Shown here piece after piece: positions 20,480-64,000 of a stretch of 64,000 nt of DNA. The translations under genes were made by a program, and so were the position numbers. Position 1 is the first letter of the stretch, and each line of letters opens with the position of its first letter. Source of the stretch: a virus (Duplodnaviria > Heunggongvirae > Uroviricota > Caudoviricetes); the IMG/VR virus record IMGVR_UViG_2675903433_000022, one strand, 5' to 3'. The notes beneath the pieces are model-generated. The model saw nothing but the letters and a program-made list of their open reading frames with translations, was not told where the DNA came from and ran no database searches.

Positions 20480-20543
20480 AAACCTCTTTCCTTAGTGCCT
20501 TTTGTATGTTATTTGGCTATTATAATAAGTAAGTGATTACTTA

Positions 20544-21242
20544 GTGGATTGTAGCAATAAAATGGATGTAAAAATCACGATTTTGCAGGTTGATGTTGCC
20601 AACCTTCGCCCGAATACCTGGAACACCAATTCGGTTGGTGCGCAGAATTTTGAAAAACTGAAAGGTTCTATCGAAAAATTGGGCTTTTTTAAGCCAATTT
20701 TGGCTCGTGAACTTGAAGATGGATTTTTTGAAATCCTCGGCGGCGAACATCGCTGGCGTGCTGCTATTGAGCAAGGAATTTCAACGGTTCCGGTGCTTTC
20801 TGTGGGCAAAATTAGCGATGTCGTAGCTAAACAGATGTCACTGGTGGACAACGAGCGATACGGTGAAGACGACCAAATCGCATTGCAACGCTTCATTGAA
20901 GAAATTCAGTCAGAACTTGACTATCAACTGTCTGAAATCGCCCCGTATGACGACGAAATCTCGATGGTTTTAGCAAAAGAGGCGGCAATCGACCTTGAAG
21001 CACTGGAGGCGTTGTCTCGTGGTAGTGATGAGCCTGTCGATACCGACAAACGAGAGAAAACCGAACGTGTGGGGGCGGAACATCAGACCATGCGCTTCAA
21101 AGTAACTTTCGATGCGTCAGATCGTGTTGCAGAAACCATAAAAAACATCATCAAAGAGCAGGCTATTAACACCGGTAATGAAATGGAGAACGCTGGTGAG
21201 GCTCTGGTGTGGCTGGTCGACTACTACAAGGAGCGTATGTAA
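20544..21242 (+). CDS. ParB/Srx-fold (ParB N-terminal domain) protein 1
   Basis: VANLRPNTWNTN and GGEHRWRAA motifs typical of the ParB nuclease-like domain; start ambiguous (GTG 20544 or ATG 20562). Confidence 0.7.
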   Translation: MDCSNKMDVKITILQVDVANLRPNTWNTNSVGAQNFEKLKGSIEKLGFFKPILARELEDGFFEILGGEHRWRAAIEQGISTVPVLSVGKISDVVAKQMSLVDNERYGEDDQIALQRFIEEIQSELDYQLSEIAPYDDEISMVLAKEAAIDLEALEALSRGSDEPVDTDKREKTERVGAEHQTMRFKVTFDASDRVAETIKNIIKEQAINTGNEMENAGEALVWLVDYYKERM

Positions 21243-21910
21243 TGACCAAAAAGTTTGAAATCGTATATCGCGACCCGGCAGATCTTATTCCCTATGAGAT
21301 GAATGCCAAAAAGCATGATGAACAGCAGATCCGAGATCTGGCCGCAGCCATTAAAAAGCGCGGATTTGACCAGCCAATTACGGTCGATAAGAACGACGTA
21401 ATTATTACTGGCCACGGCCGCCGTGAGGCTGCAATTTTTGCTGGACTTGAGCGCGTGCCGGTTATTGTTCGCGATGATCTCAGTGATGACGAGGTTCGTG
21501 CGAAGCGCCTTGAAGATAACCGACTTGCCAGCATTGATTACGATGCAATTAAGCTACAGAAAGAGCTTGAGTCGCTTGTTCTGGACGATATCGAGGTTTT
21601 CGGCTTTGAAGAGCGTGAGTTGAATGTTCTCGTTGGCAGTATGACAGAAGAAATGGACACCGACTCGCTAGTTATCGATCTTGGCGAAGAAACTAAACGA
21701 CAGAAGGATGAACACACCGAGATCAGTCGCGAAGTTGCAGCGGAAGAAGTACGTGTTGTCGACGTATTGGGCTTTAAAACGCTTCCTGCTGGCTCTGCCA
21801 TTGTTGTTGGTGATTTGCTTGCCCACATGGAAGAAATGACGGGAGAGAGCGGGGTAGACGCATTTGTGGCATATGCGGAGAAGATCTCTTCCGGGGAGAT
21901 GGCTGCATGA
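21242..21910 (+). CDS. ParB/Srx-fold (ParB N-terminal domain) protein 2
   Basis: LIPYEMNAKKH...GHGRREAA motifs; ATG overlaps upstream stop (TAATG); RBS AAGGAG. Confidence 0.7.
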   Translation: MTKKFEIVYRDPADLIPYEMNAKKHDEQQIRDLAAAIKKRGFDQPITVDKNDVIITGHGRREAAIFAGLERVPVIVRDDLSDDEVRAKRLEDNRLASIDYDAIKLQKELESLVLDDIEVFGFEERELNVLVGSMTEEMDTDSLVIDLGEETKRQKDEHTEISREVAAEEVRVVDVLGFKTLPAGSAIVVGDLLAHMEEMTGESGVDAFVAYAEKISSGEMAA

Positions 21911-22572
21911 GCAAATACATCATCAACGTATCGTTTCAGACTCGCGTAAATAAAACCACGCGCACATTGGAAATCGCTGAGTCGTTCGGGCTTGGCCTGG
22001 ACGAAAAAGAGTGGACGCTTTACGACAATCTGGAGCTGGAAGTGAAGCAGGGCGATGTGGTGTACATCACCGGCCAATCCGGTTCCGGCAAATCCGTTGT
22101 GCTGCGCGAGTTGCAACGACAGATGAAGGATGAAGGGCTGTCTGTAGCCTCCATCGATGATTTTACCTTCGATAATGAGGTTAACGTCATCGATCAGTTG
22201 GGCAAAACGACCAGTGATGCGCTTGGGTTGTTATCTATGGCTGGTCTGAACGATGCATATCTGTTTGTTCGCAAGCCTTCTGAAATGTCAGACGGCCAGA
22301 AATATCGTCTCAAGATTGCCAAACTGATTGAGTCAGGCGCTAAAGTGTGGGCTGCTGACGAGTTCGGCGCTGTTCTCGACCGTGTAACCGCTCAGGTTGT
22401 GGCGTCTAACCTCCAGCGTGCCGCTCGAAAGGTTGGTGCGACGGTAATGGTGGCGACGACTCACGAAGACCTGAAGAACGCGCTGCGCCCGGATATGCAG
22501 ATCACCAAGCACTACAAAGAACGCGTGAAGGTGGAATATCACAATGGTAGTCATGATGAGGTCCATTCATGA
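21907..22572 (+). CDS. ABC-type ATPase (no transmembrane partner)
   Basis: Walker A GQSGSGKS, signature-like MSDGQKYRL, Walker B VWAADEF, H-loop TTHE; ATGA-coupled. Confidence 0.7.
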   Translation: MSKYIINVSFQTRVNKTTRTLEIAESFGLGLDEKEWTLYDNLELEVKQGDVVYITGQSGSGKSVVLRELQRQMKDEGLSVASIDDFTFDNEVNVIDQLGKTTSDALGLLSMAGLNDAYLFVRKPSEMSDGQKYRLKIAKLIESGAKVWAADEFGAVLDRVTAQVVASNLQRAARKVGATVMVATTHEDLKNALRPDMQITKHYKERVKVEYHNGSHDEVHS

Positions 22573-23459
22573 CGGACATCATCATTAAACGCTACCGCCC
22601 TGAAGAGTTTCCGCGTCATCTGGACTTTCTGGAGCGAATGACTGTTACAAAGGGAACTGTAGAGGACTGGCACGCTCTTAAGTCGCTTCACTACAAAACA
22701 GACGGCAAACCTTTCGCGCCAACTTACTATCGCTGCGAACTTGATGACCGTCTGGTGGGCGTCGTGGTTATGGCTTACCCGAAACTACTGTTGGCACCTC
22801 GCCACCGCATGTTTCCTAAGTTGAAACCAACCACTAATACCACCGTGGCTAACCAGTACTGGGGTCGGTACGTGAATAACAACTTTGCGGTGATCAGTCG
22901 CTCAGTTGTGGATACTCAGTATCGTGGCGTAGGCGTCTCTTATCGAATGATTAACCTGGTTAGCAGGATGCATGACCGGCCAATCATTGAGATCCAGTCC
23001 TCGATGAGCAAATACAATCCCTTCGCCATGAAAGCAGGGTTTAAGTTCATCCGCCCTGAGCGACCGAAGAGCTATGAAAGTGCACTGCGTGTATTCCAGC
23101 GCCATTTCCGTTCCGACCCGGGTGATAACGAGGCGATCGTCAAAGAGTTGTTCGCAATGAGCGAGTCTCGTCGTCGCCGTGCACTGCGTGATCTGGTGGC
23201 GGACTACCACAAGAACAGTTCCCTGGCAAAAGCTGGGCGGAATCGTGGCACTACGATTCAGGACATTGCCGACAGTCTGGTGGACGAGGCCAGCATTGTG
23301 AAGCTGCTCAAGGACATTCACAACCTGAGCTTTACGTCTCCGTTGTATGGTGTGTACCGAAACCCTGACTTTGGCCGTCGACTGCCTGACACGCTGCCAC
23401 TGCTGGCATTCGACAAACAACCTTTGGATAAACCGTTAGAAATTGCTTTACCGGCATAA
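22569..23459 (+). CDS. Hypothetical protein with GNAT-like acetyltransferase motif
   Basis: VVDTQYRGVGVSYRMINLV resembles GNAT motif A; ATGA-coupled to the ATPase gene. Confidence 0.5.
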   Translation: MTDIIIKRYRPEEFPRHLDFLERMTVTKGTVEDWHALKSLHYKTDGKPFAPTYYRCELDDRLVGVVVMAYPKLLLAPRHRMFPKLKPTTNTTVANQYWGRYVNNNFAVISRSVVDTQYRGVGVSYRMINLVSRMHDRPIIEIQSSMSKYNPFAMKAGFKFIRPERPKSYESALRVFQRHFRSDPGDNEAIVKELFAMSESRRRRALRDLVADYHKNSSLAKAGRNRGTTIQDIADSLVDEASIVKLLKDIHNLSFTSPLYGVYRNPDFGRRLPDTLPLLAFDKQPLDKPLEIALPA

Positions 23460-23468
23460 GGATTTGCC

Positions 23469-23735
23469 ATGACGTTAACCGACAAACAAAAGGACATCAT
23501 CAAAACGCTCAATCTCGGTTATGAGCGAGGTCATCTACTTGATCTGGACGAATTGCTTGAAGTTTTGCCGTACAAGACAACCAAGCAAAGTATCCAGTTC
23601 TCAATTCGCGCTCTGATAAAAAAGGGGCTGGTGGAGAAAGGGCATACGCGCCAACGCAGTGACAATCGCTATCACCGCCGGACTCTTGGGTTAACCACTT
23701 TAGGTCGAGCCAAAGCGAAGTTACTGGTGATGTAA
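23469..23735 (+). CDS. Small basic putative DNA-binding protein
   Basis: 88 aa; RBS AAGGA; sits immediately upstream of the packaging genes. Confidence 0.5.
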   Translation: MTLTDKQKDIIKTLNLGYERGHLLDLDELLEVLPYKTTKQSIQFSIRALIKKGLVEKGHTRQRSDNRYHRRTLGLTTLGRAKAKLLVM

Positions 23736-23758
23736 TCGGTCTGGGAGCTTATTTAAAG

Positions 23759-23815
23759 ACCTGCTTCTGTATATATAAATAATAAGTAACTTATTAAATA
23801 TATACGGAAGCAGGC
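23759..23815. repeat. ~56-bp imperfect palindrome, copy 1 (cctgcttctg-core-cggaagcagg)
   Basis: Second copy at 56808-56866 has an identical 36-bp core with the flanking stems reverse-complemented. Confidence 0.6.
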
Positions 23816-23877
23816 TTCGTAAGACATGCCAGACCTAATTAAACACCCCAGAAAACAAGTTGGTTAGCAGATGCAGT

Positions 23878-23890
23878 AAACAAGTTGTTT
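23878..23890. promoter_or_regulatory. AAACAAgTTGTTT palindrome upstream of terS
   Basis: Perfect copy, with an imperfect copy at 23853-23865. Confidence 0.45.
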
Positions 23891-23930
23891 TAGAGCGCAT
23901 GGACGCGCTCTGTGTGTTTTAGAGGGATCT

Positions 23931-24563
23931 ATGACGGTCGAAAAAGACGAGGTAAAAACTCGCCTGACACCAGCGGAGTGGGCCGAAGCTGAAGCCAAAT
24001 GGACGTCAGGCGAATATACACTCTCAAAGCTGGAGGAAGAGTACGGCATTCGTCGTGAAACACTCTCCAGACATTTCAAAAAGCGAGGATTAGAGAAAGG
24101 CGCGGACTCTGTTGGGAAGATGGTTCGTGAGTCTCTTAAATCTGACGCAGAGCTTCGCGCTAAAGCCCGTGCGGAAAAGATAGAAGAACGTCGTACACGT
24201 TATGACGGCTGGGCGTATGCGTTGGGGCAGATGGTGATGGTCGAAGTCACTACGGCCAAACGTGAGGGTAAGCCTTTAGGGGCGATTGAGGATTCTCTCA
24301 AGAGCTTACAGAGAGCCAGTAATACCCTTGCAAAATGCTTTGAAGTTTCGTCCAAAGCATTGGGCATGGATCATGCGGAAAATGACGAGGAAGAAATTCC
24401 GAACCTGGTATTTGGTGAGCTTACGCCTTCCCAGGTGGCGAAATTACGTCAGGAAGACGACGAGCCTGAAATCATCGATGACGAATTGCTTGAGACGTTG
24501 GAAGAAGAAGCTCTAAGCGAATTTGATGCGACAGATGATGGAATTGAAGGGGAGGACGAATAA
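23931..24563 (+). CDS. Terminase small subunit (putative)
   Basis: 210 aa directly upstream of and overlapping terL; HTH-like LSKLEEEYGIRRETLSRHF; acidic C-terminus. Confidence 0.6.
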   Translation: MTVEKDEVKTRLTPAEWAEAEAKWTSGEYTLSKLEEEYGIRRETLSRHFKKRGLEKGADSVGKMVRESLKSDAELRAKARAEKIEERRTRYDGWAYALGQMVMVEVTTAKREGKPLGAIEDSLKSLQRASNTLAKCFEVSSKALGMDHAENDEEEIPNLVFGELTPSQVAKLRQEDDEPEIIDDELLETLEEEALSEFDATDDGIEGEDE

Positions 24564-25819
24564 TGGCAATCCCGTCCTCGCTCAGTCTTGTGCAACTGCA
24601 TTCTGGACAGATGAAAGTCTTCCAGTCTCCGCATCGATTTAAAGTTGTTTGTGCTGGTCGACGCTGGGGAAAATCCCGGTTGTCGATCTCCACTATTATT
24701 CGTGCGGCGGCAAAGGAAAAAAAGCAAAGAGTCTGGTATGTCGCTCCTACTTACCAGATGGCTCGCCAGATTTTGTGGGACGATCTACAGGAAGTTCTGC
24801 CTCGTAAGTGGGTTAGGAAAAAGAACGACACCACGATGACAATCGTGTTGAAGAACGGTTCGGAGATCGCCCTCAAAGGTGCTGATAAGCCTGACACTCT
24901 GCGCGGCGTAGCGTTGCATTTTGTAGTGCTTGATGAATTTCAGGATATGAAGGCTGACACCTGGTACAAGGTGTTACGACCTACTCTTTCATCGACACGC
25001 GGCGGTGCACTGATCATTGGTACGCCAAAAGGCTTCTCGGAATTTCACAAACTGTGGACTATAGGCCAGAACGTAGAGCTGCAAAGAAAGGGACAGTGGA
25101 AGAGCTGGCAGTTTGTAACTGCCGATTCTCCGTTTGTACCTACGGCGGAAATTGAAGCTGCTAAGAATGATATGGACCCGAAATCGTTCGCTCAGGAGTA
25201 CCTGGCGAGCTTTGAGAACATGTCCGGGCGCGTTTACTACCCGTTCGATCGTAACGTGCATGTAAAACCGCTTCAGTTCAACCCTCGGTTGCCTATATGG
25301 GTAGGGCAGGACTTCAACATTGACCCGATGTCTTCAGTAATTTTGCAACCTCAGCCAAATGGTGAGCTATGGGCAATTGATGAATTGGTGCTCTTTTCCT
25401 CTAACACGGCAGAGGTTTGTGATGAGCTTGAGAGACGCTTCTGGCGCTGGAAATCACAGATAACGGTATTTCCAGATCCGGCAGGTGCTTATCGCCAACA
25501 TGCTCGCGGGGAGTCTGACGTCGACATATTCAAAGAGAAGGGATTCTTACGTGTCGATTATTCGAAAAAGCACCCGCCAATTGCGGATCGTGTTAATGCT
25601 GTTAACCGAATGCTGATGACCGCATCTGGAGATATCCGGTTGTATATCGATCCGAAGTGCAAGCATTTGATTGATTCACTGGAAAAAGTCATCTACAAGC
25701 CTGGAACACGAGATATGGATAAGACAGGTGGCATTGAGCATAGTGCAGACGCATTGGGCTATCCAGTACATCGTAGGTATCCAGTCAAAAACCGTGTTAT
25801 TCTTGGTGGTTCTCGATAG
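24563..25819 (+). CDS. Terminase large subunit
   Basis: 418 aa; Walker A-like VVCAGRRWGKS; gene order terS-terL-portal. Confidence 0.8.
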   Translation: MAIPSSLSLVQLHSGQMKVFQSPHRFKVVCAGRRWGKSRLSISTIIRAAAKEKKQRVWYVAPTYQMARQILWDDLQEVLPRKWVRKKNDTTMTIVLKNGSEIALKGADKPDTLRGVALHFVVLDEFQDMKADTWYKVLRPTLSSTRGGALIIGTPKGFSEFHKLWTIGQNVELQRKGQWKSWQFVTADSPFVPTAEIEAAKNDMDPKSFAQEYLASFENMSGRVYYPFDRNVHVKPLQFNPRLPIWVGQDFNIDPMSSVILQPQPNGELWAIDELVLFSSNTAEVCDELERRFWRWKSQITVFPDPAGAYRQHARGESDVDIFKEKGFLRVDYSKKHPPIADRVNAVNRMLMTASGDIRLYIDPKCKHLIDSLEKVIYKPGTRDMDKTGGIEHSADALGYPVHRRYPVKNRVILGGSR

Positions 25820-25834
25820 GTAAGTAATTATCTA
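25817..25834. promoter_or_regulatory. TAGGTAAGTAATTATCTA, copy of late-region ATAAGTAAGTA-type motif
   Basis: Intergenic between terL and portal; one of at least 14 related copies. Confidence 0.4.
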
Positions 25835-25845
25835 AGGTTATTCAA

Positions 25846-27420
25846 ATGGAATTGAACGACAAACAAATTAAGGATCTGGTGGCGCGACGCCACCCGGAAT
25901 ACGAAAAGAAAAAAGAACATTGGGACTTCCTCGCCAGCACTTACGCTGGCGGGCGTGGTTGGTTTACAGACAATATCTTTCGTTACTTTAAAGAGGGAGA
26001 TCAGGAGTTTAAGGAGCGAGTTGAGCGTGCTTATCGCTTCAACCACACTCGTGAGGTGGTAAACCTCATCAACAAATATCTCTTTAAAGAAGACATTCAT
26101 AGAAATATCGAAGAGGCACCAGAGCAGATCCGCAATTTCTGGAAACGTGCGACTCGCCAGAATGCCTCTATTGACTCATTTATGGCCGCTATTGATTTGC
26201 AGTCGTCTATTTACGGTCGCATATGGGTTGTTGTCGATAGCACGATGAGTGGTGATGTTGAGTCAGTAGCTGACGAGAAAAAGAAAGATGCTCGCGCCTA
26301 CGCCTACTGGATTTCACCTCAGCAAATGCTGGATGTGGCATGGGACGACGACGGGAATATGTTGTGGGCGTTAATTGTGGAAGTCGCTCGTGATGACGCA
26401 GATCCTTTTACTTCTACAGGTCAGGAATACCAACGTTATCGTCTGTGGACACAAAACGAGTGGTATCTGTTCCGTGAGGAAGTGAAGAAGGGCGCTGGTG
26501 GAGCAGGTCGCCGTCAGGCAAAAGTTATTTTAGAGGATAGCGGTGAGCATAATCTCGGCGTAGTTCCTGTGTTTCCTGTTGATTGTATTGGAGAAAGTGA
26601 ATCACCGTATTTCAGCCCATCGTTGATCGATGATATCGCTTATCTTGATCGTGCGGTTGCAAACTATCTGTCAAACCTTGATGCCATTATTCAGGATCAG
26701 ACATTTAGCCAGTTGGCTATACCGGTACAGTCGCTTTTACCTGGTGATGAAAACCACACTAAAGTGCTTGAAATGGGCACAAAGCGAGTCTTCACCTACG
26801 ATTCTGAAGGTGGAAACCAGCCGTTTTATCTGTCACCAGACCCGAAACAAGCTCAGATGATCATCACTACGATTAAGACGGTGATTAACGAAATCTACCA
26901 TTCAGTTGGTGTAGCTGGTGAGCGAACGAAGCAGGACAACGCACAGGGAATCGATAACTCATCTGGTGCCGCAAAAATGTATGACTTCCAGCGTGTAAAT
27001 AGCTTGCTTGTCACAAAAGCAGAGCGTCTGGAAAGGGCTGAACGCCAAATCATGCTACTGGTTGCGAAATGGATGGGGGTAGATCTGGACGAAGACCACT
27101 CTTTAATTGCGTATCCAGAAAGTTTCGATATTCGTGGCCTTACAGATGAATTTTCTGTTGCCGAGAAACTGTCATTACTTCAGGCACCGGACTCTGTACG
27201 TCGTCACCAGATGGAAATGCTTATTGAGAAGATTTTCCCGAACATTACTGAGGCGATGAAAAAGGAATTTGATAAAGATCTCTTGAATTTTCCGCCAAAA
27301 AATGATCTAAATACCCTTGAAAATAAGTCAGTACTTACTTATGATCGTGGTACAGCCCAAGAAAGCGGGCAAGATCAACCCCGAGGGAATGGGGACTCAT
27401 CTACTCAAGAGAACGAGTGA
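25846..27420 (+). CDS. Portal protein (putative)
   Basis: 524 aa, immediately after terL and before scaffold and capsid genes. Confidence 0.7.
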   Translation: MELNDKQIKDLVARRHPEYEKKKEHWDFLASTYAGGRGWFTDNIFRYFKEGDQEFKERVERAYRFNHTREVVNLINKYLFKEDIHRNIEEAPEQIRNFWKRATRQNASIDSFMAAIDLQSSIYGRIWVVVDSTMSGDVESVADEKKKDARAYAYWISPQQMLDVAWDDDGNMLWALIVEVARDDADPFTSTGQEYQRYRLWTQNEWYLFREEVKKGAGGAGRRQAKVILEDSGEHNLGVVPVFPVDCIGESESPYFSPSLIDDIAYLDRAVANYLSNLDAIIQDQTFSQLAIPVQSLLPGDENHTKVLEMGTKRVFTYDSEGGNQPFYLSPDPKQAQMIITTIKTVINEIYHSVGVAGERTKQDNAQGIDNSSGAAKMYDFQRVNSLLVTKAERLERAERQIMLLVAKWMGVDLDEDHSLIAYPESFDIRGLTDEFSVAEKLSLLQAPDSVRRHQMEMLIEKIFPNITEAMKKEFDKDLLNFPPKNDLNTLENKSVLTYDRGTAQESGQDQPRGNGDSSTQENE

Positions 27421-27441
27421 TAAGTAACAAAGGGAATTTTT

Positions 27442-28329: not shown

Positions 28330-28354
28330 CATCTAAATCAAAGGGAATTGATAG

Positions 28355-29230: not shown

Positions 29231-29262
29231 TCAGTGTAGTAGATAGGTAGTTATCTATGTTA

Positions 29263-39324: not shown

Positions 39325-39374
39325 ATTGTGGCGCTGACAGGATGTTAGCGCCTACTTATTTCAAGGATGAAACA

Positions 39375-40073: not shown

Positions 40074-40863
40074 TAAAGCAATCCCTGAGCTTGGCTCTGA
40101 CGTTATGCAGCAAATCTATCTCTGCGCCATAAATCGCTACCCTAATGAAGCGTGTGGCTTTCTGGTTAGAACTAATGGCGACAAATATCGCTTTATGGAA
40201 GCGCGGAATGTTTCGGAGAACCCGCAGAACACTTTTGTAATGCACGTTGACGACATTATGGCGGCAGAGGATGCGGGTGATGTTATCGCAATCTGGCATT
40301 CACATACTGATGAATCAGCAGAAGCATCTGATGTCGATCGTGCAGGCTGCGAAGCGACGGAAGTTCCGTGGATGATTCTGGCTATTCGCAAGAATGTTGA
40401 GGGAGATGCCCCTTTCCATTTTAGCGAGATGAATGTGATCACACCTGATGGTTTCGAAATGCCATACCTGGGCAGACCGTATGTATTTGGCGTATTCGAT
40501 TGCTGGATGTTGTGTCGGGATTATTTGAAGCGTGAGTTTAACGTCGAACTAAACCCGAACGCACACCTGCATATTCCATCGTGGTACACCGGCGATAACG
40601 ACATTCTCGATCAGAACTACCGTAACGAGGGATTGGTGCGTCTTGCGCCCGGAACAGAGCCTCAACGTGGGGACGTATTCTTTATCCAATACGGGAAAAT
40701 GCCTGACCACTGCGCGGTTTATATCGGCGATGGAATGATTCTTCATCACCAGATCGACCGCCTAAGTTGTCGTGCTTATTACGGCGGAATGTATCAGAAA
40801 CATACGACGCATCACTTGCGTCACAGAGACTTGCTCAAGGGAGATGAGACGTGTCTGAGTTAG
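40066..40863 (+). CDS. Tail tip assembly protein (lambda K-like: MPN/JAB plus NlpC/P60-type domains)
   Basis: HSHTDESAEASDVD (JAMM-like) and NlpC/P60-like Cys/His region; ATG overlaps the L-like stop. Confidence 0.7.
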   Translation: MGNKAIPELGSDVMQQIYLCAINRYPNEACGFLVRTNGDKYRFMEARNVSENPQNTFVMHVDDIMAAEDAGDVIAIWHSHTDESAEASDVDRAGCEATEVPWMILAIRKNVEGDAPFHFSEMNVITPDGFEMPYLGRPYVFGVFDCWMLCRDYLKREFNVELNPNAHLHIPSWYTGDNDILDQNYRNEGLVRLAPGTEPQRGDVFFIQYGKMPDHCAVYIGDGMILHHQIDRLSCRAYYGGMYQKHTTHHLRHRDLLKGDETCLS

Positions 40864-46211: not shown

Positions 46212-46236
46212 AAATAAGTAGGTAATTACTTAATGG
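46212..46236. promoter_or_regulatory. AAATAAGTAGGTAATTACTTAATGG, late-region motif copy
   Basis: Intergenic before the tail-fibre gene. Confidence 0.4.
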
Positions 46237-46276
46237 TGGGCAAGAATAGCCCACCAAATCAAGGAGCATATTCAAC

Positions 46277-54848: not shown

Positions 54849-55517
54849 ATGACCAAGATCTTTGTGGTTGGCGGCACAAAGGGCGGGCCTGGCAAATCCA
54901 CTGTTGCCCAGCAAATTGCCGTTTGCCTGAAAGTCAAAAAGAAGAAGAAGGTTTATATCACTGATATAGATATTCAGCGCACGACAACAAGCTGGTGTGA
55001 AGACCGTCGACAGAACGAAGACCTTGAGCTGATTCCTTTTGCCTACGTTCAGGATGACATCATTAAGCACCTAAAATCGCTTCAGGGTAGAGCTGAGTTT
55101 GTAGTGGTAGATGCTGGTGGCTTTGACTCCGAAATTCAGCGACAAGCGATGCTGATGGCCGACGTTATCATTATCCCGCTGCGTCCTAAGCGTCGTGATT
55201 TGAAATCTCTGCGTGACATCGATCCTATTATCGACAATGTTCGTAATGTAAACGATAAAGTGAAGGTCCGCGCGGTCATGAACCAGTGCCCGGCTTTGCC
55301 ATCACAAGTGTCTCGCATTCTGGCGGCTAAAGAGATTGTCGAGACGTTTGGCATCGAGTCTGCGCCAGTCAATCTATATAACCGCAACGTCTACGATGAT
55401 GCGGAAGAGTCTGGTCGTTCTATCTTCGAAATGACCGGTAGCGAGCGCGACAAAAAGGCTGAAGCCGAGTTTGAAGAATTTGTAGATTATCTGTTGAGTC
55501 TGGAGGAAGAAGAATAA
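54849..55517 (+). CDS. ParA/ParF-family partition ATPase
   Basis: Deviant Walker A KIFVVGGTKGGPGKST; 222 aa (small type Ib ParA size). Confidence 0.85.
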   Translation: MTKIFVVGGTKGGPGKSTVAQQIAVCLKVKKKKKVYITDIDIQRTTTSWCEDRRQNEDLELIPFAYVQDDIIKHLKSLQGRAEFVVVDAGGFDSEIQRQAMLMADVIIIPLRPKRRDLKSLRDIDPIIDNVRNVNDKVKVRAVMNQCPALPSQVSRILAAKEIVETFGIESAPVNLYNRNVYDDAEESGRSIFEMTGSERDKKAEAEFEEFVDYLLSLEEEE

Positions 55518-55876
55518 TGTCCATGAAAATGGGTGACCTAGCAAAGCGCAAAGAGCCTGATGCACCGGCTAAGAACACAACTCCTTTGCGCCAACCAGTC
55601 AGACCACAGGGACGCCCGACTCGTGGCAAAGAGAAAATTAAGAGCCGCACGATGTCACTGGAGGACGAATACTTCGAACTGCTGGAGATGATGAAGTTCA
55701 TCCCTCGTTTCGAGAAATTCACCCGTTCAGACGTGATTCGCGCAGCCATTTTCCATCTGGCAGAGAAGTCACCGCAGGAAATCGAGGACATCGTGAAACT
55801 TAACGAGGCGATCACAGCTGCCGATGTCACGATGCGTACCGATGAAATCAAACGAGAGTTGATGAAAAAAGGTTAA
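55517..55876 (+). CDS. ParG-like small partition / centromere-binding protein (putative RHH)
   Basis: 119 aa, basic disordered N-terminus, TAATG-coupled to ParA-like gene. Confidence 0.55.
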   Translation: MSMKMGDLAKRKEPDAPAKNTTPLRQPVRPQGRPTRGKEKIKSRTMSLEDEYFELLEMMKFIPRFEKFTRSDVIRAAIFHLAEKSPQEIEDIVKLNEAITAADVTMRTDEIKRELMKKG

Positions 55877-56807: not shown

Positions 56808-56866
56808 CCTGCTTCCGTATATATAAATAATAAGTAACTTATTAAATATATACAGAAGCAGGTCTT
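56808..56866. repeat. ~56-bp imperfect palindrome, copy 2
   Basis: Core tatatataaataataagtaacttattaaatatatac identical to copy 1; stems reverse-complemented. Confidence 0.6.
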
Positions 56867-56945
56867 TTAAAAGACACCACCAGAACAACTCCCTTCCGTT
56901 TCCACTTCCAAAAACTGCCACCAGTCGCTATCATCCGCTCATTGT

Positions 56946-56967
56946 GATAAGTAAGTAACTACCTACC
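56946..56967. promoter_or_regulatory. GATAAGTAAGTAACTACCTACC, late-type motif copy
   Basis: Immediately upstream of the 56979 gene. Confidence 0.4.
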
Positions 56968-56978
56968 AGGTGAGCCAC

Positions 56979-57719: not shown

Positions 57720-57730
57720 CTAATACTAGA

Positions 57731-57743
57731 AAACAATTTGTTT
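57731..57743. promoter_or_regulatory. AAACAAtTTGTTT palindrome upstream of helicase gene
   Basis: Perfect copy 20 nt before the ATG. Confidence 0.45.
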
Positions 57744-57762
57744 AAAAAACAAAGGAAAGCAC

Positions 57763-59103
57763 ATGACCGAACTTTGCCATACAGGACGCGGGCTGTCCGA
57801 AGAGTTTGATGAAGATTTCCAGAACAGACTGACGGCATATTTTTGTCGTGATCACGAGTTTCTTACTCGTGCGGGAGATCTGGTTGTGCCTAGCCAATTT
57901 GCCAATGCGGCCAATGCCATATTGGTTAATATGGTTTCGGGCTATTACCGTATGTACAAGAGCGCGCCCTCTTCATCTGCAATTCTGGATATGCTTAAGC
58001 GTGCGAAACGCGATAAGACTATCCGTGAGGAACTATTCGCCGATGTTGTTGCTGCGTTTAAGCGCATCCTTGCAGAAAAATTGTCCGATACCTCGTACAT
58101 GGTTGACCAGGTATCAACCTTCGCAAAAAGCGTAGCGTTTGATGATGCTCTGATTAAGGCTGCTGAACTGAAAGAGAAAGGCGACTTTCAGGGGGCGATG
58201 GCAATCATGGCCAAGGTTCAGCAGATTGGATCGAACGAAGCGACCGGAATCTATGACTACTACACCTCCGCAAGTGAGCGATTGAAAGCGCGTGAATATG
58301 AGGCTTCAGAGGAGTATGTGCCAAACAGCATTACAACTGGACTCCCTCTGCTCGATAGGTTGCTGTACCAAAAAGGCTGGGCGAAGCGTGAAATGGTGCT
58401 CTTCATGGGGTTCGCTAAATCCGGTAAATCGACCGCAATGGGTGAATTTTCCATAAACGCAACGCTTGCTGGCTACAATGTTCTGTATCTCTCGCTGGAG
58501 GTTCACACCACCATTTTATCCGACCGTTTTGATGCAAGATTGTCGGAGACAGAAATGTCCAAGCTGGTGGAACGGCGCGATGAGGTTCATCGTAAGTTGG
58601 CAGAGTTGGGAGCCACGAAGGGGATTGGTAGTTTGTGGGTGGTTGAGCGTCCGTCAGGAAGTATGTCACCGGCAGATCTGGACCGTATGCTTAACAGCAT
58701 GAAAGCCAACGGCATGGTGCCTGACATGGTTGTTGTCGACTACGCAGATTTGATGCGTGCCAGTTATGACCTTCGTGATGATCGCGCCAACATTCGTAGT
58801 ATCTACACCGATTTGCGCGCTCTTTATGACAAGCATAACGTTGCTGGTATCACGGCATCGCAGACAAACCGTGAAGGTGGCGCGTCAGAAGTTGCCACAA
58901 TGATGCACGCTGCCGACAACATCGAAAAAGTACGTATTGCTGACCTGGTAATAACGATCAACAAAACCGAAGAAGAAGAAGCGAAAGGAGAGGCTCGTCT
59001 CTACTTTGCTGGTTCACGTAACCAGCAGGGAGGGATCAGCATTCGCGTTAAACAAAACCTCGAACAAATGCGCTTCATTGAGCGAATCTTAGACGTTACC
59101 TAA
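57763..59103 (+). CDS. DnaB-like replicative helicase (RecA-fold)
   Basis: Walker A GFAKSGKST and DnaB C-terminal-domain-like motifs; adjacent to the primase gene. Confidence 0.7.
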   Translation: MTELCHTGRGLSEEFDEDFQNRLTAYFCRDHEFLTRAGDLVVPSQFANAANAILVNMVSGYYRMYKSAPSSSAILDMLKRAKRDKTIREELFADVVAAFKRILAEKLSDTSYMVDQVSTFAKSVAFDDALIKAAELKEKGDFQGAMAIMAKVQQIGSNEATGIYDYYTSASERLKAREYEASEEYVPNSITTGLPLLDRLLYQKGWAKREMVLFMGFAKSGKSTAMGEFSINATLAGYNVLYLSLEVHTTILSDRFDARLSETEMSKLVERRDEVHRKLAELGATKGIGSLWVVERPSGSMSPADLDRMLNSMKANGMVPDMVVVDYADLMRASYDLRDDRANIRSIYTDLRALYDKHNVAGITASQTNREGGASEVATMMHAADNIEKVRIADLVITINKTEEEEAKGEARLYFAGSRNQQGGISIRVKQNLEQMRFIERILDVT

Positions 59104-59184
59104 AAAATAAGCGTGGAGAACACCTCCACGCTTGATTCATTGGTGAAACAACTTTTCTTTTGCCAAACCACAAAAGAAAAACAC

Positions 59185-60366
59185 ATGAGCCTTTATGTTA
59201 TATCAACATTTAGGTTGGTCACAATATTGCCTGTTAAAAGTGGAATTATCGTGAGCGAGCTGAAAGAGCTAATTACCGAATTAGATTTTGAACAATGGTT
59301 GGACACTGAAGGTATCGTTTATCGACGTGGAGGCGTGAGTGCTCGCGGTCGTGAAGTGAATATCAAGGAGTGTCCGGTATGCGGCAGCTCCAACTGGAAG
59401 GTATATTTCAATCTGACCAGTGGTGTCGGCAAATGCTTCGCTGGTGATCATCCCGAAGAGATTCAGTTTAATAAGCTGGTCTTCCTCAAGCACTACAGCG
59501 GTAAATCACGACGACAGTTCGAGGAATATGTGCAGAACGCTCTTCTTTCCCAGGGGTGGGCACCAAAGAAAGAAGAGATAGTGCTTGCAAGCACAGTCGA
59601 GTTAGAGGGACCACTTGCACTCCCTCGTCATTACGAACTTCCTATAGATGGCCGTCTTCCAGACTATCTGGTTGAACGAAACATATCGCCTGAAATGGCA
59701 AAGTATTTTGACCTACGATACTGCGTCGAAGGCAAGCACGCTTATGTAGATCCGTATACAGATCAGGTTAAAGGACAGATATTCGATATGCGAATACTGA
59801 TACCGGTTTACGATCTGGATGGGGTAATGAAGACATTTCAGGGACGAGACATTACCGGTACAGCAGAACGCCGCTACCTCTTTCCTATGCAGCTTCCAGC
59901 TTCAGGTAAGTTTCTCTACAACGGCCATAATGCGGTCGGCAAACAGACTGTAGTTGTCTGTGAGGGGGCATTCGATGTTATGGGGGTTAAACGAGCTATT
60001 TTTGATGAAGAAACATTACGTGATTACGTGGAACCAATAGGAACGTTCGGGATGCATCTATCTGGTAACACCACTCAGGATGCAGAAGATCAGTTAGGCG
60101 CGTTCCTGACGCTCAAGGCGCGTGGGTTACGTAATGTGATCATGATGTGGGATAGTGAAAAGCAAGCTATACGCAACACTATGGCCGCAGCCAGGCGACT
60201 GACCAGTATCGGTCTTAATGTCAAAGTGGCGTGTTTGGGCGAGGAAGGACTCGACCCGGGCGATGCAACGCCAGAGCAAATCATCAAAGCCTATTATCGG
60301 GCAAAACCGTATACCAAGCAGTTGGAGTTACAAAGCAAGGTTTTGGGCATTAAGGCTCTATCATAA
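59185..60366 (+). CDS. DNA primase (zinc-ribbon plus TOPRIM)
   Basis: CPVCGSSNW...CFAGDH zinc ribbon; VVVCEGAFDVMG TOPRIM; start uncertain (ATG 59185 or GTG 59251); track start 59113 lies in a hairpin. Confidence 0.7.
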   Translation: MSLYVISTFRLVTILPVKSGIIVSELKELITELDFEQWLDTEGIVYRRGGVSARGREVNIKECPVCGSSNWKVYFNLTSGVGKCFAGDHPEEIQFNKLVFLKHYSGKSRRQFEEYVQNALLSQGWAPKKEEIVLASTVELEGPLALPRHYELPIDGRLPDYLVERNISPEMAKYFDLRYCVEGKHAYVDPYTDQVKGQIFDMRILIPVYDLDGVMKTFQGRDITGTAERRYLFPMQLPASGKFLYNGHNAVGKQTVVVCEGAFDVMGVKRAIFDEETLRDYVEPIGTFGMHLSGNTTQDAEDQLGAFLTLKARGLRNVIMMWDSEKQAIRNTMAAARRLTSIGLNVKVACLGEEGLDPGDATPEQIIKAYYRAKPYTKQLELQSKVLGIKALS

Positions 60367-60379
60367 CAATCACCTTTAA

Positions 60380-60401
60380 AATAAGTAGATGATTACTTAT
60401 C
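60380..60401. promoter_or_regulatory. AATAAGTAGATGATTACTTATC, late-type motif copy
   Basis: Intergenic after the primase gene. Confidence 0.4.
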
Positions 60402-60441
60402 TTTCTGTGAGAATACTTTCATCTGTTAGCTAGGAGTTGGT

Positions 60442-61224
60442 ATGAAAGACGAAATTCAGAAATTAGCCTGCGACATCATTGATAAAACTGGTTTAGAAAT
60501 CAGCGAGAGCAATCGGCTAGACATCATTGAAAAAGCCGTAAAAACAGCAATGGATCATATCGCCACTCGTTTGGTCGAGATCCCGCTACCGGGGCTACCT
60601 TATCTGAAGGTTAAGTTACACGTATGGGGTGAACCTTCTTGTGCACGGCGTTCTGCATTAGTTGTTTTTATTAGCAAAGAAAACCCGATCAGTCTTAAAG
60701 TGCAGGTTGGGGCATGGATGGATGGCAAAGTGATCTACACAAATACCGTTTTTTGTGCGTCAAATGACAGTATTATTGAAGAGGCTATTCAAGAATCACT
60801 TCTAACTATGCATAGCTTAGTTTTGCTGGAAGACAAGCAAAACTACGAAGAGTACTTACGGTCGATAAAAGGTGAGAGAACATTGTCACTTAAAGCCGAT
60901 TTCGTTACCCCGACAAACCTGTTGGAAGTCTTGCTTAATAAAGGGGCTAATGATGCCGTAAATGTAATCAGAGAGAGTGAGTATGCGTCTCTTTGCGACA
61001 TGTGCAAAAGCCAGTTGGATCTGGTGCATATCGTTATTGATGCTGGGAAGGCATGTGATGGCGTAATGGCGGAATTTGCTGGGAAGATGGTCAGGATTGC
61101 TAACGAATTACCGATGATAGAGCAAGAGGCTAAATCATACGCCACCAATCATGTCACAGAGCTTCTTGTCCCCTATCGCTTAGAAAGCAATCAGCGCAAG
61201 ATGATTAGCTGGGGAAGTTGGTAA
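60442..61224 (+). CDS. Hypothetical protein
   Basis: 260 aa; TAGGAG RBS. Confidence 0.55.
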   Translation: MKDEIQKLACDIIDKTGLEISESNRLDIIEKAVKTAMDHIATRLVEIPLPGLPYLKVKLHVWGEPSCARRSALVVFISKENPISLKVQVGAWMDGKVIYTNTVFCASNDSIIEEAIQESLLTMHSLVLLEDKQNYEEYLRSIKGERTLSLKADFVTPTNLLEVLLNKGANDAVNVIRESEYASLCDMCKSQLDLVHIVIDAGKACDGVMAEFAGKMVRIANELPMIEQEAKSYATNHVTELLVPYRLESNQRKMISWGSW

Positions 61225-61281
61225 TCTCTCCGCGCGTCGTTTTTTTTACGCAAACAATGATAGGTAAGTACAAGATTATTT

Positions 61282-61764
61282 ATGGCGATAGTTGTGAAAG
61301 CTGATTTGTCAAAAATCCCCTCTATTTCAGGAAATAATGGTTATTCACTTCGTTGTGAGGAAGTAAAGATAAACGGTGAGTCGGCATATTGCAGTTACTC
61401 CGTTTGCCAGCACACCATTCTTGCCTTCAAAGAAAGCCGTCTTCCTCGAACTTCTTTCCAGTCGTGCGCAACCGCTATTAAAGCAGGCAAATGCAAGGCG
61501 TTAAAAATGATGGTTGAAGAGATTCGTAAAGGAGAATCTCTGTATTTCGAAGATATGACCGCACTCATTAAGGAGGTTGAAGAACGGAATAAACAAGCCA
61601 GAACTATAAAACGAAAACGTGACAGTGTAACGATTAATAGCATGGTTAAGAAGAGCGCCACATCACAAACAGCGATCACTGACGTGTATGCGGCGTTGCT
61701 TGAAGAAACAACAAAAGAAACACATGAGCAAATCGATCAACATATGGAGGCAAAACAACAATGA
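61282..61764 (+). CDS. Hypothetical protein
   Basis: 160 aa; ATGA-coupled to the ligase gene. Confidence 0.5.
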   Translation: MAIVVKADLSKIPSISGNNGYSLRCEEVKINGESAYCSYSVCQHTILAFKESRLPRTSFQSCATAIKAGKCKALKMMVEEIRKGESLYFEDMTALIKEVEERNKQARTIKRKRDSVTINSMVKKSATSQTAITDVYAALLEETTKETHEQIDQHMEAKQQ

Positions 61765-63083
61765 AAAAGTTGATCGCACTTAAGCATAAGCTGGACGAAA
61801 TGAAAGCTATGGGAACCAATGCAAAAAAAGAGGCATTGGCCAACATGGATGACTTTGAACAAAGCATGGTTTCATTGATGCTCAACCCTTTCATCCGTTT
61901 TGGGGTAAAGAAATACAAAGTGGCAGAGCCGCTTAGTGAGTCCGTCCTAAGTGACGAAAAAGCCATTGATGTACTGAATAAGCTGGCCTCTCGCGAGCTG
62001 ACGGGGAGCGCAGCAATAGTTGCTGTTGAGTCTATCGTGGCGTCAATGTGCGCCGATGGGCAGGACGTCTTCCGTCGTTTCCTCTTAAAAGATCCGAAAG
62101 CTGGCGTTGGGATTAGCCTATGTAACAAGGTTTTTGAAAATCCCATTCCGAAATTCGAGGTGCAGCTGGCGTCACCGTATAAAGAAAAAGGCGACAAATA
62201 CCCCTTCAAGCCAAATCCTAAAGCCAAATGGCCGATGATTGGCAGCCTTAAGCTCGATGGTTTGCGAGTAATTTGTGAGGTTATTGTTGACGAGGAAGAG
62301 GTTAACTTCCTTTCTCGTACTGGTAATCCAATCACGTCTCTCGATCACCTAAAGCCAGCCATGCTCGAATTAGGCAAACTTTCAGGCCACAAACACATCT
62401 TCTTCGATGGTGAAGGAACAGCCGGTTCATTTAACCAGTCCATATCTGCATTGCGCAAAAAGAACGTGCAGGCAATTGGCGCTATTTATCATGTTTTCGA
62501 CTTCTTCCTACCGGAATGGCGAGCACAGGCTAAATCCAAAGAGTATGCAAAGACAGGTATGAAGCTGAAAGAGCGCCTGGCTATGCTGGTGGCGTTGTTC
62601 AAAAACGATCGCAGTGAAGGCTACACACAAGACATTCACCTGCATCCGTTCTATATCATCCATAGCCACGAAGACTTCATCGAACGCTTCATGAAACGCC
62701 TGGACGATAACGAAGAAGGGGAGATGGGCAAAGATCCGAACTCTGTTTACGAGTTTAAACGTACCCGCAGCTGGTGGAAGTTAAAAGACGAAGATTCAGA
62801 AGATGGTGAAATTATCGACTTTGAGCCGGGCGACCCGGACTCTGGTTTTGCCAACACACTTGGAAAAATTGTTATTCGTCTTGAAAACGGCGTCATCGTT
62901 CGTGCGAGCGGCATTAAGCATAAATATCTGGACGAGATCTGGAACAACAAAGAGAAGTACCGTGGTCGTATTGTCGAGGTTCATTGTCACGAGAAAACAC
63001 CGGACGGCAGCTTACGCCACCCACGACTGAAATGGCCGCGTTGCTTACGCGATACAGAAGATCGAATCGGAGATAAAGAATGA
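61761..63083 (+). CDS. ATP-dependent DNA ligase
   Basis: Motif I KLDGLR, motif III FFDGEG, C-terminal DPNSVYEFKRTRSWWKLK resembling T7-type ligase motifs. Confidence 0.85.
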   Translation: MKKLIALKHKLDEMKAMGTNAKKEALANMDDFEQSMVSLMLNPFIRFGVKKYKVAEPLSESVLSDEKAIDVLNKLASRELTGSAAIVAVESIVASMCADGQDVFRRFLLKDPKAGVGISLCNKVFENPIPKFEVQLASPYKEKGDKYPFKPNPKAKWPMIGSLKLDGLRVICEVIVDEEEVNFLSRTGNPITSLDHLKPAMLELGKLSGHKHIFFDGEGTAGSFNQSISALRKKNVQAIGAIYHVFDFFLPEWRAQAKSKEYAKTGMKLKERLAMLVALFKNDRSEGYTQDIHLHPFYIIHSHEDFIERFMKRLDDNEEGEMGKDPNSVYEFKRTRSWWKLKDEDSEDGEIIDFEPGDPDSGFANTLGKIVIRLENGVIVRASGIKHKYLDEIWNNKEKYRGRIVEVHCHEKTPDGSLRHPRLKWPRCLRDTEDRIGDKE

Positions 63084-63259
63084 TGCTCGGCTGGATGATT
63101 GCATTTTTAGCGGTTGGTTTTTTAATCGGTATTGTGGTGATGTCCAGTTGCATCAATGACTACATTAAAAGCGGTGTTATAGAACGACGCGGTCGTATTT
63201 ATCGCATTGTAGAAATAACCCACACAGTGAAGGAGATTAAGGATGATCGTATTAAGTAA
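63080..63259 (+). CDS. Small membrane protein (59 aa)
   Basis: ATG overlapping the ligase stop; hydrophobic MIAFLAVGFLIGIVVM; paralogous to the 63455 ORF; translated by hand. Confidence 0.3.
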   Translation: MMLGWMIAFLAVGFLIGIVVMSSCINDYIKSGVIERRGRIYRIVEITHTVKEIKDDRIK

Positions 63260-63458
63260 GCGGGAGAAGGAAACGCTTCATGAAATCAGTAAGTGGCCGG
63301 AGTTCCCTGAGTACTGGAAGCCTAAAACGCGAGCTAAGTTAGAGCGTTTAGGGTTGGTTGCAAACGTTTCTGAAACGAAGTGTTCGGCCAACTACCAGTT
63401 AACTGATAAAGGGAAAGTATTGCTACAGCAATTAGTAGAATCAGGAGTGTTAAAATGA
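63243..63458 (+). CDS. Hypothetical protein
   Basis: 71 aa; AGGAG RBS 7 nt upstream. Confidence 0.5.
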   Translation: MIVLSKREKETLHEISKWPEFPEYWKPKTRAKLERLGLVANVSETKCSANYQLTDKGKVLLQQLVESGVLK

Positions 63459-63607
63459 TTCCATACATCTCATTAGCTTTTATGGGTGGCTTCCTTATTG
63501 GCTTCGGCATCTGTCGTGATTTAATTAAGCAGGAACTTAAAACCAAAACACTGTGCATCGGAAAGCGTGTGTATCGGGTAGTTCATGAAACAAAGGTTAG
63601 AAAATGA
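63455..63607 (+). CDS. Small membrane protein (50 aa)
   Basis: AGGAG RBS; hydrophobic LAFMGGFLIGFGIC; ATGA coupling on both sides. Confidence 0.3.
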   Translation: MIPYISLAFMGGFLIGFGICRDLIKQELKTKTLCIGKRVYRVVHETKVRK

Positions 63608-63894
63608 TCAATTTAACTTCTTGGAACTGGTGGTTGGCCACCTATTTCTTAGCGGCCGGAGTCGCATTCGCCTTTTACGTAGGTCAGTTAGTCGTAAAAC
63701 TGTTGCTGATTAAATTTGCTAGTCATAAACGTATCGATGATGGTCTGTGGCGTCTTGGCACCTTGGTGGAAACTCGCTACGGGCAACTTAAGGAGAACGA
63801 AACCATTACTATCCAAGCGAAACGATTCACTGCCACCATCACAAGAACACCTAGTCGTAGAGTGGCCTTGATCAAAAAAGTTACAACCGAATAA
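63604..63894 (+). CDS. Membrane protein
   Basis: 96 aa, N-terminal TM WWLATYFLAAGVAFAFYV. Confidence 0.5.
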   Translation: MINLTSWNWWLATYFLAAGVAFAFYVGQLVVKLLLIKFASHKRIDDGLWRLGTLVETRYGQLKENETITIQAKRFTATITRTPSRRVALIKKVTTE

Positions 63895-64000
63895 AAATAC
63901 AATGATAAGTATTTACTTACTTATCATTTATGTATAAGATGACTTTGTTTTCGTTGAGACGCGACTGTTTGAACTTAAATACAAGTGCAAACGAAGAAGT

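Follow-up and report, generated by a model that had tools for sequence, protein, structure and literature searches.

A conserved, dispersed palindrome at lysogen-silent promoter-like elements of an SSU5-type phage-plasmid, possibly the operator of a phage-encoded global regulator

The virus record IMGVR_UViG_2675903433_000022 (Caudoviricetes) of IMG/VR is represented here by a stretch of 64,000 nucleotides, to which we refer as the window and whose intergenic regions repeatedly contain a palindromic motif that is the subject of this work. Clinical E. coli, Klebsiella and Salmonella commonly harbour SSU5-type phage-plasmids, which in many cases bring resistance genes with them; judged by nucleotide similarity, the window is about 64 kb out of a roughly 108-kb element of this type. 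For a 4.7-kb probe taken from the terminase-capsid region, identity amounts to 99.3% with Escherichia phage Cyrano (pLF82, OV696614), 84% with Salmonella phage SSU5 and 81% with SSU5-like phage-plasmids of Klebsiella. The window opens with part of the small-gene early region and a leftward block ending in uvsW, followed by a parB-like operon and then by the terminase, head, tail and lysis genes, parA and the replication module. The complete genomes of Cyrano, SSU5 and the Klebsiella phage pJN2-26 were used as comparators, and more distant relatives were compared through loci anchored on terL.

A first-pass annotation of the window had described a recurrent TAAGTAAGTA..TACTTA motif at 14 coordinates. 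The motif is real. With at most one mismatch, TAAGTAAGTA has 20 matches in the window against 2.7 expected, and none of 100 shuffles reaches 20; the patterns TAAGT-N4-ACTTA and TAAGT-N8-ACTTA have 14 matches apiece and every other spacing 0-2, the two spacer registers (4 and 8) arising because the left arm is the 4-bp-periodic TAAGTAAGT. A scoring matrix made from 11 copies was run over 23-nt windows with a cut-off of at least 14 bits and 30 Markov simulations as null, and it finds 12 sites in the window, as compared with a simulated mean of 0.07. The copies score 11-32 bits when left out one at a time, and the good ones all align without gaps. Eleven of the 14 coordinates correspond to true copies, namely all the strong ones listed below except that inside the portal gene. 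The positions 27418 and 28324 are false, being merely TAAGTAA beside a stop codon with scores below 8 bits, and 29236 is a decayed copy. The strong portal copy had been overlooked, and the motif had not been recognised as a single palindrome of 20-26 bp. The copies in the window, to none of which a strand is assigned, are the following.

13470..13492, motif copy after a terminator, in the gap equivalent to Cyrano 106/107; 21.4 bits
20523..20545, motif copy where uvsW (leftward) and the parB-like operon (rightward) diverge; 29.4 bits
25814..25836, motif copy across the terL stop codon, 9 nt ahead of the portal start; 20.0 bits
27322..27344, motif copy within the portal open reading frame; 28.9 bits
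29238..29260, decayed copy between the major capsid gene and a terminator; 9.7 bits
32812..32834, motif copy ahead of a tail protein gene; 26.8 bits
39299..39321, motif copy between tail genes M and L; 27.0 bits
46212..46234, motif copy in the gap that separates the J-like gene from the tail fibre gene; 27.5 bits
51857..51879, motif copy upstream of the holin gene; 30.4 bits
56945..56967, motif copy ahead of the CYRAN_31 homologue; 30.2 bits
60379..60401, motif copy between primase and the CYRAN_34 homologue; 24.1 bits
61258..61280, motif copy downstream of a terminator, with the following start codon about 2-10 nt away; 23.3 bits
63904..63926, motif copy leading into the tRNA region; 33.5 bits, the highest score

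The anatomy of the site was studied on 68 sites of the three complete genomes, each read on the gene strand. The consensus wwR-ATARGTAAGT/ACTTACYTAT-Yat (26-bp form AATGATAAGTAAGTACTTACTTATCATT) is dyad-symmetric over 20-26 bp and is composed of two 10-bp half-sites, ATARGTAAGT, whose base frequencies mirror one another (left 12.5 bits, right 10.8 bits), the symmetry extending three flanking bases further on either side. Information peaks at positions 5-6 and 15-16, that is 10 bp apart, and strand bias is absent. In pJN2-26 many copies are perfect palindromes of 20-22 bp with the centre GTAC; in the window, copy 63904 is the near-perfect palindrome GATAAGTAnnTACTTACTTATC, and in copy 61258 the left half is good and the right one degenerate (14.6 bits when left out). 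The two halves vary independently and show no compensatory changes: paired positions match on average at 7.88/10, versus 7.98/10 when the right halves are shuffled among sites, and the polymorphic pair 4/17 is distributed as A:T 17, A:C 17, G:C 12 and G:T 12, which is the expectation under independence. As RNA, five of six window copies fold with energies between -0.2 and -4.4 kcal/mol, copy 63904 is the sole one with a stable fold (-10.7 kcal/mol), and most copies fold no better than shuffled sequence; an Rfam search of the window gave no family match. Independent halves, lack of strand bias and weak folding therefore point to a DNA dyad bound by protein rather than to a hairpin, and on these sequence features we consider it highly probable that the motif is a protein-bound DNA site of some kind.

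Cyrano has 22 copies in 108 kb against about 0.25 expected, and SSU5-type phage-plasmid genomes have about 22-33 copies each. Placement in intergenic gaps, as first proposed, is borne out, since 21 of the 22 Cyrano copies fall in non-coding DNA, which makes up 13% of the genome (P = 6e-18); a position just upstream of the ribosome-binding site holds only loosely, the distance to the next start codon ranging from 1 to about 130 nt. Restriction to late genes does not hold: nine of the 22 Cyrano copies are located in recombination, nucleotide-metabolism and early regions outside the window, and copies are also found ahead of gp32-like, sbcD, nrdA, thyX, dam and replication-module genes as well as the parB-like operon.

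Conservation is concentrated in the palindrome. Cyrano, SSU5 and pJN2-26 share about 20 orthologous positions, and in 56 orthologous pairs from these genomes identity is 88% in the palindrome versus 48% in the flanks; the decayed copy 29238 has orthologues of 20.3 bits in SSU5 and 28.5 bits in pJN2-26. Around terL, a set of shared sites (the uvsW/parB gap, the terL/portal junction, inside portal, after the capsid gene and before the tail gene) is found in relatives from Kluyvera, Yersinia pestis, Morganella, Xenorhabdus, Photobacterium and Halomonas, the last of which keeps the motif although its terL is only 65% identical. Copy 20523 has orthologues in Klebsiella, Kluyvera, Yersinia, Xenorhabdus, Morganella and Halomonas, and copy 25814 is kept in all relatives down to Halomonas. 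In Morganella and Xenorhabdus the outer arms ATARGTA-N6-TACYTAT are kept and the inner hexamer is different. The portal copy of Morganella follows this lineage variant (ATAGGTATGTAAATACCTAT) at the cost of a changed peptide, NKSVLTY becoming NRYVNTY, which therefore argues for selection on the DNA. In the X. szentirmaii relative (L080:12757-12779) the portal copy creates an in-frame TAG that interrupts the annotated portal frame; the explanation may be a pseudogene, an assembly error or a C-terminal tail that is dispensable.

The motif is absent from two still more distant relatives (L084 and L085, terL 56-58% identical), in which no replacement palindrome was found either. L085, a Pseudohongiellaceae relative, contains an asymmetric element, (A/T)GTAAGTCA, at 3077, 8890-8920, about 5040-5075 and 11231, where it follows directly on the -35 in the spacers of four sigma70-like promoters, one of them belonging to the L085 gene for a protein resembling the ribbon-helix-helix (RHH) family. 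This element may be a diverged form of the operator.

Many of the copies are overlapped by sigma70-type hexamers conserved in the three genomes, the motif centre ranging between about -37 and +16. Of the 22 site groups, about 12 are overlapped by conserved sigma70-like promoters, and 6-7 of these coincide with step-ups in RNA-seq; the other sites have no clear promoter. The motif can be the spacer itself (centre -19.5), as in TTGAAA-17-TATCAT of the recA/memb gap and in TTGAAA-17-TATGAT inside the portal gene (27317-27345), which is kept in Cyrano, SSU5 and pJN2-26 and, at 10/12, is the top sigma70-like match of the window between 13 and 33 kb. The motif centre can also serve as the -10, as in TTGAAT-16/18-TATATA/TATACT of the Tc1/tail gap and TTTACA-17-TAGTAT of the 59/60 gap; the deviation from AGTACT at both gaps is kept in all three genomes, and copy 32812, the Tc1/tail copy of the window, has TATATAC in its place. 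At about +1, TTGCCA-17-AAAAAT (dam) and TATAAT (parB, copy 20523) adjoin the left edge of the motif, and at about +15 the motif follows TTCCAA-17-TATsAT ahead of CYRAN_31 (TTCCAA-17-TATCAT upstream of copy 56945). In five gaps an extended -10 occurs without a -35 hexamer, and the motif is centred at -29.5 to -32.5; for example, copy 60379 has its extended -10 7 nt downstream and its centre at about -30.5. At the holin gene the centre is near -42, a conserved extended -10 (TGATATAAAT) lying about 16 nt downstream of copy 51857. Moreover, copy 13470 overlaps the promoter-like match TTGTAA-17-TAGAAT (13474-13502), whose TTGTAA deviation is kept in SSU5 and pJN2-26, and copy 63904 is followed by a TAAGAT -10.

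No -10 at a fixed distance was detected across the 68 sites, either in the information profile of the flanks or in offset counts, and the only constant -10-like hexamers are the palindrome's own symmetric ends, equal on both strands. A promoter class with fixed geometry is thus not what the site looks like: it is symmetric and without gene-strand bias. What survives of the late-promoter proposal is a conserved regulatory DNA site, many copies of which coincide with promoters.

Expression at these sites was taken from the per-gene Cyrano RNA-seq values in the supplement of the LF82 prophage paper (PMC9928086), in which the median of the LB lysogen is 9.8. Genes linked to the motif are at or near that background: CYRAN_4 10.9, CYRAN_56 5.0, CYRAN_60 5.0, CYRAN_31 6.2, dam 6.0 and parB 5.0 (PMC9928086). 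Several of these background-level genes have near-consensus promoters. In macrophages at 6 h, log2 values step up across motif copies as follows (PMC9928086).

RecA 4.06, then CYRAN_56 7.61
CYRAN_59 4.84, then CYRAN_60 8.77
Tc1 5.98, then tail 8.49
portal 4.75, then CYRAN_4 5.97, then MCP (major capsid protein) 7.35
primase 4.67, then CYRAN_34 7.24
CYRAN_106 5.64, then CYRAN_107 7.31

The 64/sbcD and 90/91 gaps, both without a -35, remain off in the macrophage samples. The pattern suggests that the motif-linked promoters are real sigma70 promoters, which would be held down in the lysogen and leak first where the core promoter is strongest. Near-consensus promoters that are silent, together with step-ups at good hexamers, therefore fit a repressor better than an activator.

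The reading that we favour, at a probability of roughly one half, is that the motif copies serve as operators for a global regulator, encoded by the phage and mainly repressive, whose targets are scattered sigma70 promoters; that a protein binds the motif, that it represses and which protein it is are what we infer from the observations above. A dimeric or tetrameric DNA-binding protein encoded by the phage would bind the dyad, most copies of which would lie on host sigma70-type promoters of head, tail, lysis, replication, recombination and nucleotide-metabolism genes. Occupancy of the operator would mainly block RNA polymerase; the internal promoters would thereby be silent in the plasmid-prophage state, and their timing would be set during lytic growth. 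The copy in the uvsW/parB gap, located between the uvsW operon with its RHH-like gene and the parB-like/terminase operon, would allow the regulator to control its own synthesis.

A precedent for such an arrangement is the C1 repressor of P1, which has 22 dispersed operators with the 17-bp asymmetric sequence ATTGCTCTAATAAATTT (PMC8546580). Both are phage-plasmids in which about 20 occurrences of a short sequence mark promoters of lytic genes (replication, recombination and methylase genes among them) that are silent in the prophage. The comparison is one of operators, and the present site differs in being a palindrome of 20-26 bp unrelated to ATTGCTCTAATAAATTT. Moreover, in P1 the late structural genes use a separate class of promoters dependent on Lpa, whereas the present motif is also found among head, tail and lysis genes.

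A phage-encoded factor is still the probable reader of the site. Neither the Cyrano annotation nor Pfam and PHROG scans, which covered about 40 proteins of no clear function, showed a sigma factor or an RNA polymerase, the single-subunit kind included. The candidate binders located in the window are the following.

18639..18917, minus strand, first-ranked candidate, 92-aa protein (CYRAN_117 homologue), directly after uvsW
23469..23735, plus strand, alternative candidate, 88-aa winged-helix protein (CYRAN_123 homologue), just upstream of terS
20562-21242 and 21242-21910, plus strand, alternative candidates, two genes with ParB_N domains, directly downstream of motif copy 20523

The best candidate, judged by its sequence and gene context, is the 92-aa protein, which we consider the most likely binder. 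Its N-terminus has a strand-helix-helix pattern resembling RHH proteins, and its gene belongs to the leftward operon that starts at the uvsW/parB copy and has a syntenic counterpart in every relative. In the lysogen it is expressed at 114 against the median of 9.8, that is 12 times the background (PMC9928086). The Halomonas orthologue matches Pfam ParG at E = 3.5e-4 and RHH_10 at E = 0.04, and the family profile matches TTHA0139 in the PDB at E = 0.011. The predicted DNA-facing strand is TYCQVAL in E. coli, IHCQVQL in SSU5, ISCQVKL in Klebsiella, VVQFRAT in Xenorhabdus and ISVNVNF in Halomonas, and differs most in the two relatives without the motif (RTSLRM/L). Operators of the Arc/Mnt type of RHH protein are about 21 bp long; their two 10-bp half-sites are separated by one helical turn and are occupied by a dimer of dimers. 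The proteins are very small, and the regulator gene is divergent from the genes that it represses. By analogy, the format of the P22 Arc/Mnt operators would match the two 10-bp half-sites described here; as a difference, Arc and Mnt have one operator each, the present motif has more than 20, and membership of the candidate in the RHH family is marginal.

The CYRAN_123 homologue has an AlphaFold2 (AF2) model with a mean confidence (pLDDT) of 72.5 and a helix-helix-helix-wing topology; its top Foldseek matches are LexA DNA-binding domains (probability 0.99 but E = 0.14), and Pfam gives LexA_DNA_bind at E = 0.07. Its expression in the lysogen is at background, 7.8 (PMC9928086), as is that of CYRAN_37, another winged-helix-like candidate. 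The two parB-like genes, with Pfam ParB_N matches of 3e-13 and 1e-8 and N-domains akin to those of Spo0J, Noc and KorB, have lysogen values of 5.0 and 9.5, at or near background (PMC9928086). All these proteins could therefore act only in lytic growth, and the ParB-like ones were rejected as lysogenic binders.

Two repressor-like proteins were also set aside. A CI-like protein, CYRAN_45, is an unlikely binder: no motif copy lies near its gene, and SSU5 lacks the gene and yet keeps the motif. A FljA-like protein is unlikely as well, being absent near the conserved module in the motif-bearing Morganella, Xenorhabdus and Halomonas relatives. FljA is the repressor of phase-1 flagellin, and the homologue in the window (17619-18221, minus strand; Pfam Flag1_repress, E = 2.5e-84), which is full length and absent from more distant relatives, suggests by its sequence that the phage-plasmid manipulates host flagellin expression.

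Several observations weigh against a mainly repressive regulator with the 92-aa protein as its binder. The expression data come from Cyrano rather than from the element of the window and have no 5'-end resolution. Although its predicted promoter ranks first, dam stays off in macrophages, and strong upstream copies do not prevent expression of CYRAN_34 (43.7) and of the tRNA region in the LB lysogen; repression is therefore non-uniform, and the regulator may have a dual role of repression and activation. SSU5, reported to be virulent, keeps all the sites, so that the regulator must matter in lytic growth too. No convincing promoter is present at the terL/portal, M/L, J/fiber, MCP/Ig and ruvC/nrdA sites, and several promoterless copies are followed within 5-10 nt by a terminator-like hairpin whose stem covaries. 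Promoter predictions that overlap the motif are inflated because the motif is AT-rich and supplies -10-like hexamers, and the promoter scanner shows no overall excess of promoter-like sites (25 vs 28.4 in the scanned region). As for the 92-aa protein, the ParG match was obtained with the Halomonas orthologue only and scores 21.1 bits against a cutoff of 21.4, hhalign against CopG gives a probability of 1.3%, and the AF2 monomer, a disordered N-terminus followed by helices, has a pLDDT of 55, too low to be used.

Among these promoterless copies, the two in tail gaps are directly followed by stem-loops, at about 39330-39352 (copy 39299) and about 46235-46255 (copy 46212). Their stems covary among Cyrano, SSU5 and pJN2-26 (GGCGCT/AGCGCC vs CAACGT/ACGTTG), the loop ACAGGATGT is conserved, and they are probably weak terminators or elements of RNA processing or stability.

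Among the other explanations, a class of activator-dependent promoters, middle as well as late, survives best, and we regard it as possible but rather unlikely. Here a phage activator would replace the -35 and recruit the host polymerase to a downstream -10; in a variant, a dual protein could activate at about -31 and repress elsewhere. Five or six conserved gaps (among them primase/CYRAN_34, 90/91, 64/sbcD, CYRAN_39/tRNA and 106/107) have just this layout, with an extended -10 (TGn plus AAGAAT, CATAAT or TAAGAT) 5-8 nt downstream of the motif, and two regions behind such -35-less sites, CYRAN_34 and the tRNA region, are expressed. The presence of sites ahead of most structural and lysis gene blocks would agree with it, as would the small winged-helix proteins CYRAN_123 and CYRAN_37, which are off in the lysogen as lytic-phase activators should be. 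P1 offers a precedent with 11 late promoters dependent on Lpa, which share a 9-bp inverted repeat (PMC10695390): dispersed inverted repeats next to a -10 without a -35, before morphogenesis and lysis genes, which 5-6 of the present copies resemble. The present repeat is instead 20 bp long, is not confined to late genes, keeps no constant distance to a -10 and has no orientation, though nearly all genes are on one strand; moreover, many copies lie in the spacer, over the -10 or past +1, where a bound protein should block the polymerase. It also weighs against an activator that the sites induced under stress are those with good -35 and -10 hexamers, whereas the -35-less 64/sbcD and 90/91 stay off.

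A stronger form of the favoured repressor model gives the RHH-like protein a wider role, and we put it forward tentatively, as an unlikely extension. According to it, the protein beside uvsW, and not the accessory CYRAN_45, would be the core switch of the whole supercluster of SSU5/pSLy3/pKpn/pMT1-type elements down to Halomonas, and would work as a titration timer. Lytic replication would multiply more than 20 operators with each genome copy and so dilute the repressor; the structural and lysis promoters, otherwise constitutive sigma70 promoters, would then fire without a dedicated late activator.

It is doubtful that the palindromes are parS-like loading sites of a ParB_N protein, a CTP-dependent clamp with a part in silencing, in packaging or in organising the DNA. 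Scattered palindromes for one protein are also known as the Noc NBS sites and as the dispersed centromeres of N15, so that the format would be classic for the family. In RK2, similarly, palindromes for KorB are scattered over the replicon, some of them at promoters (PMC11790492). Both ParB_N proteins of the window have a GxxRxxA-like box, GGEHRWRAA, a motif copy lies directly upstream of the parB-like operon in every relative, and promoter overlap would not be required at every site. However, the KorB, Noc and N15 sites are 13-16 bp long and their ParB-family binders are expressed in the maintained state, whereas the parB-like genes here are silent in the lysogen and thus cannot mediate partition or silencing in the plasmid state. 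No helix-turn-helix was detected outside the N-domain of these proteins, whose PHROGs are widespread in phages and related to ParB-methyltransferase fusions; ParB1 identity falls to 45% in Xenorhabdus and Morganella and to 39% in Halomonas, yet the motif arms are unchanged. Partition is more probably carried out by a separate pair of ParA and a ParG-like protein. In this regard, the window contains after parA a homologue of CYRAN_29 (55517-55876, plus strand; …RTMSLEDEYFELLEMM…FTRSDVIRAAIFHL), expressed in the lysogen and annotated in Cyrano as a RelE/ParE toxin, which has no Pfam match and by its sequence looks like a ParG-type RHH centromere-binding partner of a small ParA.

A conserved host protein, such as a nucleoid-associated protein or global regulator common to Enterobacterales, Vibrionaceae and Halomonas, whose site the phage-plasmids would have adopted, seems very unlikely to us. 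The motif is unusually stable from E. coli to Halomonas hosts, and the candidate phage proteins diverge much faster; against this, its inner six bases vary by phage lineage within the Enterobacterales (Morganella, Xenorhabdus), and two distant relatives are without it. We know of no E. coli regulator with this consensus.

Least credible of all is a role in RNA, as an mRNA hairpin (for processing, stability, translation or termination) or as three-frame stops (TAAgTAAgTAA) between genes, for which it speaks that the intergenic copies are all transcribed inside polycistronic units, that several contain the upstream stop codon or adjoin a ribosome-binding site, that stop codons are present in two of three frames on either strand and that the best copy does fold, and against which stand the lack of covariation (A:C mismatches being as frequent as A:T), the folding and Rfam results, the variable distance to the start codon, a central GTAC that is palindromic although a hairpin loop would not need it, a portal copy that is translated through in an open frame and copies in divergent promoter gaps; the same evidence speaks against a translational signal.

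No description of the motif was found in the searchable literature, although a prior mention is possible in parts not covered by it. A 2024 review of the regulation of phage-plasmids names no regulator for the SSU5-type group (PMC11652158). With about 22 mapped sites of 26 bp, a short list of candidates and predicted repressed promoters, the control of lysis-lysogeny and of timing in these elements becomes directly testable, and the annotation of transcription units could benefit from the motif in hundreds of related plasmids. As a concept, dispersed operators read by a global regulator of a phage are known already from P1, which makes the finding more useful than surprising.

Another dispersed palindrome, GAAAACAAnTTGTTTTC, is found in the window at 209, 5451, 10455, 10506, 11392, 12586, 13071, 13973, 14737, 17652, 18890, 23851, 23876, 54799 and 57729, and is probably what the first-pass annotation had called its first motif. 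It typically lies 8-10 nt downstream of a GATAAT-type -10, often with a second copy over the -35 region, and such pairs look like a two-operator promoter. It stands ahead of small early genes, terS, parA, helicase, cobT and nrdB; Cyrano, SSU5 and pJN2-26 have about 20 copies each, and the Xenorhabdus, Morganella and Halomonas loci have none.

A 56-bp palindromic element, CCTGCTTCyGTATATATAAATAATAAGTAACTTATTAAATATATACrGAAGCAGG, has two copies in the window, at about 23760-23815 (upstream of terS) and about 56808-56863 (between the parA operon and the replication module). In its core, AATAAGTAACTTATT, the main motif's outer arms recur much closer together; a centromere, a pac site and a high-affinity site are conceivable roles of the element.

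Finally, by far the highest-expressed Cyrano gene in lysogens is CYRAN_43, with about 7000 against the median of 9.8 (PMC9928086). It is located outside the window (Cyrano 40268-40822, minus strand), encodes a protein of 184 aa of unknown function and is absent from SSU5 and pJN2-26.

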